Assembly: GCA_045541555.1 (NCBI GenBank)
Contig: JAZQJH010000059.1
Coordinates: 16,641-80,640 of the forward strand
Direction: 5' to 3'
Length of the DNA stretch: 64,000 nt
Source of the DNA: Eubacteriales bacterium
GTDB lineage: Bacteria > Bacillota > Clostridia > Oscillospirales > QAKW01
Each line of letters begins with the position of its first letter. Position 1 is the first letter of the stretch. Under the pieces are notes generated by a model. The model was not told the DNA's origin. It was given only the letters and a program-made list of their open reading frames with translations, and did no database searches. This document shows, in pieces, positions 24,221 to 46,399 of the stretch. Both the position numbers and the translations under genes were made by a program.

Positions 24221-24258
24221 AAACGTGCGAGATGCTGAAGCATCTCGCACGTTTTTTT
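24221..24258 (+). terminator. intrinsic terminator
   Basis: AAACGTGCGAGATGC, loop TGAA, GCATCTCGCACGTTTTTTT. Confidence 0.85.
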
Positions 24259-24264
24259 AGAATT

Positions 24265-24394
24265 TCAAAAAAGTCCCCGAAAGATCCAAAAAGATCTTGC
24301 CGCTTTCGCGGTATAACGGTGAGAAAGAGATTTTACTCTTTCTCTTTTCTTCTTTATAAGGGAAAAATCCGCATGAAAATGCGGATTTTGATTA
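24265..24394 (+). repeat. intergenic repeat element, copy A (second copy at 40542-40684)
   Basis: Blocks shared with copy B: TCAAAAAAGTCCCCGA; the hairpin (G/A)AGAAAGAG..CTCTTTCTC plus a T-rich run; and TTTATAAGG(G)AAAAATCCGCATGAAAATGCGGATTTT(G/A)ATTA. It starts 6 nt after a terminator. Its last hairpin serves as the hisJ terminator. Confidence 0.8.
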
Positions 24395-25195
24395 GATTTT
24401 TATATACTCCCTTCCATGCAACGTCAACGTCACCATTCGTTCAAAGCCGGCGGCTTTGATCTGCGCCAATGCCTGATCAAAACCATAGCCCATAGCTTTC
24501 TCATCGTGGCAATCGCCGGAAAGAATGACCTCTCCGCCCTGCTCCCGGATATATTGCAGCAGCCAAGGGCTGGGATACGGCGTCGTACGGACGCCGCGGC
24601 TCATAGCACCGGTATTGACCTCAAAAAGTGCCCCCATCGGCAAAAGCGCACGCACCGCTTCTGCGGCCGCCGCCCGGTACCGGGGGTGGTCTTCATCATA
24701 GAGCCTCTTTTGCTCCTGATACTTGGTCAAAAGGTCCAGATGACCGATGATATCGCAGGGTGACAACCGCGCCACGTGGGCAAAATAATCCTCCGCAAAG
24801 GCGTAAGGATCTCCGCCGTAGCATTCCGCGATCGCCTTTTCCTGCAAAGCCAGTCCGTCATCCATCTTGCAATCCACGCCCCGGGGATGCAGCTCGTGCA
24901 CCGAGCCGATGAGATAATCATATTCATCCGTCGGATCCTTGGAATAATAGTCCTGCTCGATACCGCAAAGGATCTCGATCTTGCCCCGGTACTCCTCCTG
25001 CAGGGCACGGATCGCTGCCCGATAAGCAGCCGCACCGCCCTCTTTTAAACAATAACCGAACTGGGTCGCGACATAGGAATGGTCGGAAAAACCGAGATGG
25101 GTATAGCCGCACGCCAAGGCGGCAAGCACCATTTCTTCCGGCGTATTTTCACCGTCGCTGAAAACGGTATGGATATGAAAGTCCCCTTTAATCAT
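24392..25195 (-). CDS. hisJ: histidinol-phosphatase, PHP (HisJ) family
   Basis: 267 aa. It shows the DFHIHT PHP motif and is the last gene of the his operon. Confidence 0.85.
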
Positions 25196-38974: not shown

Positions 38975-40210
38975 TTACTTACAATATTCTTGATAAATGG
39001 ACAAATAGGGATCCCGATCCCGGATAACGCATCCGGGGGTACCGCCGGGCTTACGCATGATTTCGGTACACTTGGAGCAGCAAAGACAAAGCTTGTTTTT
39101 ATCCATTTCGCCGGTAGCTAAGATCTCCTTGGCAAAATCCGGATAGGCAAAGATGGTGCGGCCAAAGCCGGCGAGGTCAAATCTTCCGTCCTTGATATAG
39201 CCGGCCACCACGTGGGGCGCCGCCACACCCAGATAAGAAACGGCAGAGCAAAGGATGGCCATCTCCGGGATGGACGCTTTCAATTGCGCCGTTCCCTCCA
39301 GAACACGCCGAACCCCTTCTAAGGGATGCTCGGGATGCTCATAGCCGCCTTGGGCAAAGGGGCGGTTGACGTGGGGATTGAAATAGGGATTGCCCATGGT
39401 GATATTCAAGAGGCGGACGCCATAGCCGTAAAGCTCCTTGATGAGCCATTCCGGCTCGGTGGGATCAAAGTCCAGCCCCTCTTTCCCTACGCCAAAACCA
39501 TAAGGGTACGGAAAGCCGTCGTAGACGTTCAGCCGAGAGCTGACGATAAAGTCCCTGCCGGTTCGCTGGATGGCACCTTGGATACTCTCCCGCAAAAGGC
39601 GCGTCCGGTTTTCCAAGGAACCGCCGTAACGGCCGGGACGCTCAAAGGCGGAAAGCAATTCTGAATTGAGATAGCGATGGCAGCATTTAATATCCACACC
39701 ATCAAAGCCGGCCTTTTCCGCCAAGGCCGCGCCACGCACCAAGGCATCTCCCACCCGATCCAGATATTCATCGCTGACGATGCGCTCCGACGAGATGGGG
39801 GCATCCTTTTCAAAGATCGGATTGTTATAGGCGATCAAGGGTGCCGGCGTTCCCTCCGGCTTGGAATAGCGTCCGGAATGGGTGGCCTGCATGATCACCA
39901 CCGGCTCATAGCCGTTGGTGCGCAGTCCTGCTTCCTTGATGGCTTCCACCTGGCGCTTAAAATCGTCCAGGTTCTCCTCGGTAATGTACAACTGCCGGGG
40001 ATTGGCGCGCCCCTCTGGCAAGACGGCGGTGGCCTCGAACCAAAGCAGTCCCACACCGCCCTCGGCAACCCTCTGATACCGCCGCTTGGTCAGCGTATCG
40101 GGACTGCCACCGGGGGTGCCGTCACACCCCTCCATGGCTTGCGCCGCCTGCCGAACCCGCTTGCCCTTTTGGAGCAAGAGCAGACGGAGATGATTTTGGA
40201 TCTCCAGCAT
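38975..40210 (-). CDS. Old-Yellow-Enzyme-family NADH:flavin oxidoreductase with a C-terminal Cys cluster
   Basis: It shows GGVGLLWFEATAV, QATHSGR, GFDGVDIKCCHRYL and RYGGSLENR, with C-terminal CLCCSKC...C. The start is uncertain (ATG 40210 or TTG 40225) and lies inside the AraC remnant on the other strand. Confidence 0.75.
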   Translation of the reverse strand: MLEIQNHLRLLLLQKGKRVRQAAQAMEGCDGTPGGSPDTLTKRRYQRVAEGGVGLLWFEATAVLPEGRANPRQLYITEENLDDFKRQVEAIKEAGLRTNGYEPVVIMQATHSGRYSKPEGTPAPLIAYNNPIFEKDAPISSERIVSDEYLDRVGDALVRGAALAEKAGFDGVDIKCCHRYLNSELLSAFERPGRYGGSLENRTRLLRESIQGAIQRTGRDFIVSSRLNVYDGFPYPYGFGVGKEGLDFDPTEPEWLIKELYGYGVRLLNITMGNPYFNPHVNRPFAQGGYEHPEHPLEGVRRVLEGTAQLKASIPEMAILCSAVSYLGVAAPHVVAGYIKDGRFDLAGFGRTIFAYPDFAKEILATGEMDKNKLCLCCSKCTEIMRKPGGTPGCVIRDRDPYLSIYQEYCK

Positions 40211-40501
40211 CGGTTTGCGGAGCAATACGACGACCCTTATACCCTGGAGGCCTTAGCGAAAGAGTATAACGTCAGCCCCTCCTCCCTTTCCCATCGGTTT
40301 AAGGAGGTCACCGGAATGTCGGTAATGGAATATCTTCTTTCCTGCCGACTGGCCGCTGCTAAAAATCTACTGATTGAGACCGATCTCCCTATCGGCGAGA
40401 TCGTGGAGCAATGCGGATTCAGCGACAGCAGCAACTTCAGCCGCACCTTCAAGGCGCGCACCGGGCTTTCCCCGTCGGCTTTTCGCAACCTATATAAATA
40501 G
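40190..40501 (+). pseudogene. AraC-family regulator reduced to its C-terminal HTH domain
   Basis: Only about 104 aa of AraC-like sequence is present (YTLEALAKEYNVSPSSLSHRFKEVTG...GFSDSSNFSRTFKARTGLSPSAFR). The rest of the 274-aa track ORF is antisense to the OYE gene. Confidence 0.65.
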
Positions 40502-40533
40502 AAATACGGAGCAGAAAATCTGCTCCGTATTTT
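40502..40533 (+). repeat. 32-bp direct repeat copy 1 (an intrinsic-terminator hairpin)
   Basis: AAATACGGAGCAGAAAATCTGCTCCGTATTTT, directly after the AraC-remnant stop codon. It is identical to 40822-40853. Confidence 0.9.
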
Positions 40534-40541
40534 ACAGACTG

Positions 40542-40684
40542 TCAAAAAAGTCCCCGACCGCAGAAAAAGAAAAGATCTGAAAGTTTGTACTGATTTTGCA
40601 ATATCACGGCAAGAAAGAGAACCCACTCTTTCTCGTTGTTTTTTTATAAGGAAAAAATCCGCATGAAAATGCGGATTTTAATTA
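40542..40684 (+). repeat. intergenic repeat element, copy B (first copy at 24265-24394)
   Basis: It has the same terminal blocks and hairpins as copy A, with a diverged and slightly longer interior. It starts 8 nt after a terminator. Confidence 0.8.
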
Positions 40685-40821
40685 AAATTTTCTGCTATCC
40701 GCGGGGCCGCTCTCTACCGTACCCATGTACGCCGACGAGATCGGCCCCGCGAATTCGGAAACATTTTTGAGAGTCTACCCAGCGTGTCAAAGATAAAAAA
40801 CAGGGTTCTTGACACGCTGAA

Positions 40822-40853
40822 AAATACGGAGCAGAAAATCTGCTCCGTATTTT
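40822..40853 (+). repeat. 32-bp direct repeat copy 2 (terminator of the P-II-like gene)
   Basis: A perfect copy of 40502-40533 in the same orientation. It abuts the reverse-strand stop codon at 40854. Confidence 0.9.
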
Positions 40854-41537
40854 TTATAAACCCATTACCGAATCGATAGGTAAGGACATAACAACGCCCT
40901 TGGCATCGCTGTGCATTCCGCAATTCTTGCTGATGGCACTCATGATATCGGTCTTTTTCTCATGATCGGCGAGGATCAAGACGATCTCTTTTTCCTCCTG
41001 CACGCTCAAGCCCCAAAAGCTGGTACCCTCCTCACTGCCGATACTGCGGCTATGAAGCACCGTACCGCCGCCGGCACCGGCAGCGCGCGCCGCATCCATA
41101 ACTTCGCTGCTGAAGCCACGGTTTACGATGGCGGAAATCAATACGTATTTCGATGTTCCCATAGACATTTCATCCTTTCCGTTTTTGGCGGAGTCTGTTT
41201 CTTTTGCAGTCTGATCCATCATCCGAAGCAAAAGATTGCTGACACCGGTGAGGGGAATGGTGAATGCGATACCGCTATTGACCGCATCCAGCCGCAGCTC
41301 CGAATGGAGCAGCCCCAGCATGGTCTGCCCGAAGCTTTGGGGCACCGTGCTGACCAGCACGCCTTTATCGATACTTCCAAGTCCCAGCGTATCCATGATC
41401 TCGCTGGAGGCGGTACCTTGCGCATTCAGGCGGTACTGGATGGGCAGAGCACTTTTTAAGAATAACTCTGCCGCCCGATCCGCCAGCTTGGGGGTGGCGA
41501 TCAGCATCAAAAGCTGATAGGTTTTCATTTTATTCAT
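40854..41537 (-). CDS. tandem P-II-like domain protein
   Basis: The start is trimmed to MNKMKTY, 6 nt after GGAGGTGG. It contains two beta-alpha-beta repeats; the second (YVLISAIVNRGFSSEVMDAARAAGAGGGTVLHSRS...EKEIVLIL...GVVMSLPIDSVMG) resembles the P-II family. Confidence 0.6.
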   Translation of the reverse strand: MNKMKTYQLLMLIATPKLADRAAELFLKSALPIQYRLNAQGTASSEIMDTLGLGSIDKGVLVSTVPQSFGQTMLGLLHSELRLDAVNSGIAFTIPLTGVSNLLLRMMDQTAKETDSAKNGKDEMSMGTSKYVLISAIVNRGFSSEVMDAARAAGAGGGTVLHSRSIGSEEGTSFWGLSVQEEKEIVLILADHEKKTDIMSAISKNCGMHSDAKGVVMSLPIDSVMGL

Positions 41538-46359: not shown

Positions 46360-46399
46360 AAAATGGCTGTGAAAAACGTTCGTTTTTGACAGTCTGAAT

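Follow-up and report, generated by a model that had tools for sequence, protein, structure and literature searches.

Organization of the locus

The window analysed here is a stretch of 64,000 nucleotides from contig JAZQJH010000059.1 of a Eubacteriales bacterium assembly (GCA_045541555.1), and all positions given below are those of this window unless another locus is named. At the locus under study a remnant of an AraC-family gene and a gene for a P-II-like protein converge on a segment in which a 288-bp insert is bracketed by two copies of one terminator hairpin, arranged as follows.

40160-40501, + strand: AraC-family remnant, helix-turn-helix part only, ending at the hairpin (Pfam HTH_18/HTH_AraC)
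40502-40533, no strand assigned: left target-site duplication copy, a complete terminator-like hairpin (14-bp stem, AAA loop), single-copy in the unoccupied relatives L001 and L198/L199
40534-40821, + strand: 288-bp MITE, non-autonomous, IS1182-type, short form (blastn and nhmmer), without transposase ORF and without Rfam family
40822-40853, no strand assigned: right target-site duplication copy (exact repeat of the left copy, and fold)
40854-41537, - strand: P-II-like gene of 227 aa, convergent with the AraC remnant (ORF and domain matches)

The original prediction had described a perfect 32-bp duplication of a terminator hairpin around a 288-bp insert, and we recovered it at exactly the same coordinates. 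AAATACGGAGCAGAAAATCTGCTCCGTATTTT is a perfect 32-mer which lies on the + strand in direct orientation at 40502-40533 and 40822-40853, its two copies being identical at 32/32 positions, and no such match was expected by chance in 100 dinucleotide-preserving shuffles. It folds into a 14-bp stem with a 3-nt loop (-20.3 kcal/mol), is otherwise a perfect palindrome, and carries an A-tract on one side and a T-tract on the other. The left copy starts directly after the AraC-remnant stop TAG (40499-40501) and now serves this gene; the right copy ends directly before the stop codon of the P-II-like gene (TTA on the + strand, 40854-56) and now serves the latter.

The P-II-like gene, on the - strand, comes after a DUF1538 gene. 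An exact lookup found no record for the P-II-like protein of the window. Homologues of 40854-41537 include P0020, P0103 and P0109, and several public records call the P-II-like protein a 'transposase', a name which looks like an annotation error, since the protein has no transposase domain and only a weak P-II match. The AraC-family gene is intact (278 aa) in L098, the GTDB representative of the same or a sister species. Relative to L098 the window strain shows a deletion of ~690 bp with its junction near 40142-40153 (L098 327-1017), which has cost this strain two thirds of the AraC-family gene from its N-terminal side, together with the divergent promoter region and ~27 codons at the start of the Oxidored_FMN gene; two alignments overlap by 12 bp at this junction, which suggests microhomology there.

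The insert is a dispersed element with fixed ends

The insert had been taken for one copy of a repeat element (copy B) joined to a further 137 bp. This division has to be given up, as both blastn and an nhmmer profile recovered the full 288 bp (40534-40821) as a single repeat unit, with ends falling consistently at 40530-36 and 40819-24, of which the second repeat in the window is an incomplete copy. We conclude that the insert is a small non-coding MITE, an IS1182-type derivative, which landed in the terminator hairpin of two convergent genes. The ORF list held no transposase ORF within the 288 bp, only two unconserved ORFs of 44 aa and 69 aa overlap the element, and blastn against plasmid and phage records gave no match. 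The earlier remark that the insert carries no mobility gene is accordingly correct: the MITE is a non-autonomous one, whose matching IS1182-family transposase element occurs elsewhere (see below).

An insert sequence occurring nowhere else, together with the same duplicated arrangement in all related genomes, would, as originally argued, have made a recent mobile origin unlikely. When sought in other genomes it proved to be a dispersed element with fixed ends, and so not confined to this locus. A scan of one genome per species, anchored on the internal hairpin T2 which is common to both window copies, returned at least 113 loci, mostly from a few uncultured Clostridia/Eubacteriales MAGs, one of which holds more than 20 copies. 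Among the matches listed, about 40 were complete copies with fixed ends, 76-90% identical and distributed over 12 uncultured Clostridia MAGs; the full-length copies among them comprised ~29 of a short form (286-292 bp) and ~10 of a long form (~395 bp). Contig ends truncate many further copies. In L118 and L180 we saw further MITE families which share the ends and also show hairpin duplications; a 'type-2' left end, CAGACTGTCAAAAAACCACTGTTTT, gave 0 matches in viral contigs and metagenome contigs.

The second copy in the window is the following.

24259-24401, + strand: incomplete second MITE copy, left end through T2 (model positions 3-159)

It has no right part and no second hairpin copy, and it stands after another terminator hairpin (24221-24259). 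The last codons, the stop codon and the T2 terminator of the hisK-like gene (24392-25195, - strand) all come from the MITE. Because this copy (copy A) adjoins hisK, the right 137 bp of the insert were considered as a remnant of a hisK-like 3' end, an idea which was dropped since full-length copies show the 288-bp unit.

Ends and internal structure of the MITE

Alignment and folding of the copies resolved the element into the following parts.

40535-40550, + strand: left terminal inverted repeat CAGACTGTCAAAAAAG, nearly invariant in the copy alignment and the same in the autonomous elements L159, L176 and L191
40612-40633, + strand: internal hairpin H1 (AGAAAGAG...CTCTTTCT) with a T-run after it; seven covarying pairs, G-U wobbles favouring the + strand
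40652-40679, no strand assigned: internal bidirectional terminator-like hairpin T2, AAAAAATCCGCATGAAAATGCGGATTTT; stem invariant in all copies
40700-40751, no strand assigned: internal long hairpin H3 (CGCGGGGCCG...CGGCCCCGCG); six covarying pairs, at least three stem variants
40755-40776, - strand: internal inverted copy of the left end (AGACTCTCAAAAATGTTTCCGA on the - strand), 82% complementary, equal to helix 1
40780-40819, no strand assigned: right-terminal palindrome H4 of two inverted end motifs (CAGCGTGTCAA ... TTGACACGCTG), found by inverted-repeat search, equal to helix 7
40800-40819, - strand: right end ACAGGGTTCTTGACACGCTG, reading inward from the end CAGCGTGTCAAGAAC... (copy alignment)

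The ends are imperfect terminal inverted repeats, CAGACTGTCAAAAAAG and CTTTGACACGCTG; the former matches the reverse complement of the right end, CAGCGTGTCAAAGAAC, at ~12/15 positions, which is conserved across 27 aligned copies, and the right part of the element holds two further copies of the end motif. Both additional hairpins that had been noticed in the insert (GCGGGGCCG/CGGCCCCGC and AGCGTGTCAA/TTGACACGCT) are present, and alignment of the long form showed that the ~108 nt by which it is longer lie at the apex of the GCGGGGCCG hairpin (H3). Two further observations concern short repeats of this kind. At L175 784-815 two end motifs alone make up a 32-bp 'element' (CAGACTGTCAAAAAAGTCTTTTTGACAGTCTG) with unlike hairpins on its two sides; it resembles the right end palindrome of the MITE (40780-40819). 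The same MAGs also harbour another, REP-like family of short hairpin repeats (e.g. ACCCAAATGAAATGGGT and CACAAATGATTTGTG) in tandem clusters, as at L075 1105-1575, L096 550-780 and L106 116-310.

RNAalifold on the 27 copies gave seven helices, two of which are merely inverted end motifs. In this structure 97.4% of the cells were paired (40-49% in slid controls), 19 pairs had changed on both sides (5-9 in the controls) and the covariation score was 0.198 (at most 0.069 in the controls), most of the compensatory changes falling in H1 (40612-40633) and H3 (40700-51). The core formed by H1, H3 and, in the long form, the 108-nt apical extension may be more than filler and have a function of its own, as a structure of RNA or of single-stranded DNA. 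One could go further and regard the repeat as primarily a functional small-RNA or terminator module maintained by selection, with its spread being secondary; compensatory changes well above the slid controls, the hairpins resembling terminators inside the MITE and a promoter-like site on its - strand would all suit this. We consider it very improbable, as its presence varies between close strains, incomplete and decayed copies exist, and the duplications in its flanks would be left unexplained, so that a functional role would add to mobility and not replace it. Rfam 15, moreover, contained no family for the short or the long form at gathering and E-value thresholds; the only match in the window which reached threshold was a 6S RNA gene lying outside the MITE, at 1864-2057 on the + strand (RF00013, 66.1 bits, above the gathering score). 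A 10-nt match between the window hairpin and an internal motif of the MITE, AGCAGAAAAT, was considered as a guide-target pairing and treated as chance, since other targets are without it.

The whole hairpin is duplicated at most insertion sites

For 37 complete copies with enough flanking sequence we aligned the left flank with the right flank over 60 nt each, and as a control paired left flanks with right flanks of other loci (mean score 13.4, 99th percentile 22.7). Matching flanks above the 99th percentile of the control were found in 26 of the 37 copies, with scores up to 70; the duplication of a hairpin target by the insertion, as proposed for the window, is hence the same in 26/37 other complete copies. 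The duplicated repeats adjoin the MITE within 0-2 nt, and the duplicated segment is each time a different, locus-specific palindrome of 18-37 bp (n=26), with a mean stem of 11.5 bp, a mean loop of 3.5 nt and usually an A-tract and a T-tract; nine of the 26 duplications are perfect. As typically 0-1 nt are left unpaired at each end of the segment, the duplication spans the hairpin from foot to foot. The targets have no sequence in common, and all are hairpins at gene ends. With regard to genomic context, 24/38 copies lie between convergent ORF ends and 12 more at one ORF end, which are the positions where intrinsic terminators sit.

Different hairpins stand on the two sides in 11/37 copies, which may stem from later recombination between copies or from decay. 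These copies count against the proposed reading, as either recombination after the insertion or another mode of insertion has to be assumed for them. The two flanking hairpins of L046, and likewise those of L030, are alike except that the loop is exactly inverted (TGAT/ATCA and AA/TT, respectively), as would fit template switching within the palindrome at a later time or a hairpin intermediate. These inversions, and the fact that palindromes are known hot spots of template switching, could also be taken in favour of an origin without any transposase, in which template switching during replication, or the repair of a break, introduced the segment at a hairpin and duplicated the latter by chance. 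There is little to recommend such an origin, and we rate its probability as very low, because a MITE with the same two ends recurs about 40 times among the matches listed beside unrelated hairpins, and shares these ends with transposase-encoding elements which make the same duplication.

Bracketing by imperfect-to-perfect palindromes of 20-37 bp is also a property of cassettes and dif modules, and the insert might be the cassette of a site- or structure-specific recombinase (integron attC-like or Xer/dif-like) which uses the hairpins as recombination sites. However, the mismatched-pair control revealed no conserved core among the flanking hairpins of different loci such as attC sites would have, the hairpin pre-exists singly at the unoccupied site and is duplicated, not exchanged, and the cognate protein found is a DDE transposase, all of which makes a cassette extremely unlikely. 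A REP/REPIN-RAYT arrangement does not fit either, as the 32-mer occurs only twice in the window even with 3 mismatches allowed and the flanking hairpins differ between loci. Small size, absence of a transposase ORF, inverted-repeat ends, target duplication, dispersed copies and a cognate autonomous element together identify the insert as a MITE.

Unoccupied sites and strain variation

We compared the closest relatives of the P-II-like protein together with their DNA. In L001, whose P-II-like protein is 98% identical and whose DNA is ~94% identical to the window, the order is P-II stop, one hairpin (loop AGA versus AAA in the window) and AraC stop, with no insert, and in L198/L199 (86% protein identity) a single hairpin with its own stem and loop variant stands between the same two genes. 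The original prediction that without the insert the two genes would share one bidirectional terminator is thus borne out by the relatives. The presence of a single hairpin in the outgroup L198/L199 as well as in L001 indicates that the single-terminator state is ancestral and the insertion derived.

L098, which is 94.9% identical to the window over 6 kb, has the same insertion. The insert of the window (40534-40821) and that of L098 (1410-1697) are identical at 288/288 positions and lie inside an identical tract of 309 bp, as against 5.0% differences in the surrounding 6 kb (probability of 0 mismatches in 288 bp, 3.6e-7) and a longest identical run elsewhere of 185 bp. The hairpin copies differ between the window and L098 at one stem position and agree within each strain. 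The identical tract fits either two separate recent insertions into one hot-spot terminator, for which TnSha1 offers a precedent, or the import of a very short segment by recombination; a MAG consensus artefact is also possible.

A reversed polarity was weighed as well, in which the duplicated arrangement is the older one and the single hairpins of L001 and L198/L199 result from precise loss by recombination between the 32-bp repeats; the insert would still be a MITE, but the window would be no record of a recent insertion. A perfect 32-bp direct repeat can support such a deletion, and few strains are sampled. Against this, even the outgroup at 86% protein identity has a single hairpin with a stem and loop variant of its own, the two hairpin copies of the window have remained identical at 32/32 positions, and the insert is identical to that of L098 between flanks which are 5.0% different. 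We therefore regard an older duplication as unlikely and retain the insertion as the derived event.

A third relative, L197 (P-II-like protein 92% identical), has the left end of another subfamily (…CAAAAAGGCACAGACCGCAGAAAA…) at 921-955, immediately behind the P-II stop, oriented the opposite way and lacking the hairpin; the contig stops after 35 nt. This end suggests an independent hit, and the terminator has probably been struck more than once. Three states of the AraC/P-II-like site were accordingly seen: unoccupied, occupied by the MITE of the window, and occupied by a second MITE subfamily in opposite orientation (L197).

Variation between strains was also noticed at one further position of the window.

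46365-46394, no strand assigned: hairpin fused to a lone 15-nt end motif (TTTTTGACAGTCTGA), recognized by comparison with L030

At the orthologous terminator L030 (strain JAZNVY) has a full MITE with duplicated hairpin (1547-1834). The window holds one imperfect hairpin there, the downstream DNA differs from L030, and the site looks like MITE decay at a strain-variable junction.

An autonomous element sharing the MITE ends codes for an IS1182-family transposase

Viral contigs were scanned with the 16-nt left end of the MITE. L159 and L176 proved to be 1.5-kb elements with a near-identical right end, ACAGGGGTTCTTTGACAGTCTG, and the left end of L159, L176 and L191 equals that of the MITE at 16/16 positions. 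The right end of the MITE, ACAGGGTTCTTGACACGCTG (written as ACAGGGTTCTTTGACACGCTG beside the IS end), differs from ACAGGGGTTCTTTGACAGTCTG by one gap and two mismatches. L159 is flanked by a perfect 25-bp hairpin direct repeat and L176 by a perfect one of 26 bp. The transposase ORF of both elements is 471 aa long and has the Pfam domains DUF772, DDE_Tnp_1 and DDE_Tnp_1_6; that of L159 matched the NCBIfam model NF033551, 'IS1182 family transposase', with 410.2 bits (cut-off 270, E=1.2e-122), a result which concerns the ORF of the partner element and not the window. Relatives of this transposase number in the thousands in gut and rumen assemblies; the IS1182-family transposase clade is very abundant in gut Clostridia.

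Further complete IS copies, with transposases 67-86% identical, showed hairpin duplications of 24 bp (L191), 23 bp (L183), 40 bp (L194) and 22 bp (L195), and a more distant copy, L196, has two different hairpins. Whole-hairpin duplication was thus found in 6/7 complete autonomous copies. Two related arrangements were noticed in passing: in L176 (2269-3741) the transposase ORF has no stop inside the element and reads through its right end into the flank, and in L186 (112-3094) two different IS1182-type elements stand in tandem, with terminator-like hairpins between and after them.

Loci of the host clade were searched as well. By tblastn an IS1182-type transposase was absent from the window and from ~800 kb of loci from MITE-bearing MAGs, and the host-clade loci contained no multi-copy ORF and no 1-4-kb segment which, bracketed by palindromic direct repeats, would represent an autonomous copy. 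The sampled host sequence thus yielded no partner transposase, whose presence in the host is conjectural. MAGs usually lose IS copies. The only hints of a partner are two contig-end fragments from MAG CAYLIT (L008 and L075), which begin with the left-end motif and continue into an IS-like hairpin.

Proposed mechanism of insertion

Taken together, the dispersed MITE copies and their ends, the duplications in the flanks, the relatives with an unoccupied site and the transposase element that matches the MITE make it highly probable that the insert is a MITE with IS1182-family ends which duplicated the whole terminator hairpin and was most likely moved in trans by a structure-targeting DDE transposase. 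The trans-mobilisation of the MITE in this host is deduced from sequence. Weighing against this reading are the failure to find the transposase in the sampled host sequence, the copies with unlike hairpins, the imperfection of the terminal repeats of the MITE (~12/15) and the deletion of the hairpin by IS1272. The transposases appear to choose their targets by the shape and not by the sequence of DNA, taking palindromes able to form a hairpin or cruciform, and in practice these targets are intrinsic terminators at gene ends. At the present locus the target was the single bidirectional terminator common to the AraC-family gene and the P-II-like gene. The transposase would join one 3' end of the transposon to each strand, at opposite feet of the palindrome; extrusion of a cruciform or hairpin would bring these feet close together, and repair of the resulting single-stranded gaps would copy the entire hairpin on both sides. 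Joining at opposite feet followed by gap repair would account for a duplication that is long (32 bp here, 18-40 bp elsewhere), differs in size from site to site and coincides with the hairpin, foot to foot, in every case. This geometry of strand transfer at the cruciform feet is suggested by sequence patterns together with a published model. Owing to the copying of the hairpin to both sides of the MITE, each gene still ends in a full terminator, and the MITE adds its own internal terminator-like hairpins.

Comparison with known systems

Among the closest known parallels is IS1272/TnSha1 of staphylococci, also of the IS1182 family, whose targets are chosen by structure without a sequence consensus and are mostly terminator hairpins just downstream of genes, one hairpin being hit repeatedly (PMC4923244, PMC5678879). 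The elements described here resemble it in their same-family DDE transposase and their structure-chosen terminator hairpins, and, as in IS1272 of TnSha1, the transposase ORF can lack an internal stop codon (here in L176). With IS1272 the stem-loop is lost wholly or in part and nothing is duplicated (PMC4923244, PMC5678879). Unlike this best-studied member, the present elements produce a second copy of the complete stem-loop (18-40 bp, foot to foot), and the element of the window is a 288-bp non-coding derivative and not an IS. Relatives within the IS1182 family are reported with or without target duplication or deletion and with sequence or structure targets (PMC12056078), and one member makes a 4-bp repeat (PMC3281130).

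Duplication of the entire stem-loop by joining 3' ends at the 5' feet of a cruciform was drawn by Wan et al. 2017 as pathway b in their model of structure-dependent transposition for IS1272 (Fig. 13, PMC5678879), a hypothetical alternative for which no example was given. The stem-loop duplications observed here follow exactly the pattern which pathway b predicts; they differ from it as published in being the dominant outcome in dozens of copies, the geometry being read from sequence patterns.

Bacterial MITEs such as Correia, RUP, ERIC and bcr1 are likewise small, non-coding, multi-copy and intergenic, with inverted-repeat ends, flanking direct repeats and stable stem-loops, and their presence varies between strains; in contrast to their short fixed duplications at sequence-defined sites (often TA or 2-9 bp), the duplication here is a locus-specific hairpin of variable length. 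As an analogy only, integration by CRISPR Cas1-Cas2 or casposons also involves two staggered strand transfers at the borders of a unit, gap repair and duplication of the unit, and the CRISPR repeat is often palindromic and 23-47 bp long. There, however, the integrase is Cas1 and not a DDE enzyme, the target is fixed and the spacers are short, whereas here there are no cas genes or repeat arrays. A preference for palindromic extragenic or terminator sites as safe sites is shared with IS1397/ISKpn1, with IS110/IS1111 elements in REP sequences and with class C group II introns located after terminators; these enter one REP family or one side of a hairpin, with 0-4-bp or no duplications, and use other enzymes.

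The ISfinder entry for IS1182 gives direct repeats of 0-60 bp, a range which would imply whole-hairpin duplication as one of the outcomes.

Implications

The duplication at this locus, which had seemed too long for an insertion sequence, is explained without a new class of element. The dozens of copies provide many-copy evidence for whole-hairpin duplication from foot to foot by a DDE transposon, which in the literature searched was only a hypothetical pathway. They further indicate that one transposase family can either delete (IS1272) or duplicate its structural target, and this offers a handle on a poorly understood mechanism.

More tentatively, and with somewhat more doubt than confidence, a large IS1182-family clade and its MITEs would have a distinct, structure-measured mode of integration, the MITE core being in addition a functional structure. 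Strand transfer may take place at the two feet of an extruded terminator cruciform and always rebuild a complete terminator on each side. If so, the rebuilt terminators would make the insertion transcriptionally 'seamless' and would allow repeated hits on one terminator. In the annotation of gut Clostridia genomes, two identical terminators spaced a few hundred bp from each other are a mark of such elements, and the MITE copies also point to junctions which vary between strains.
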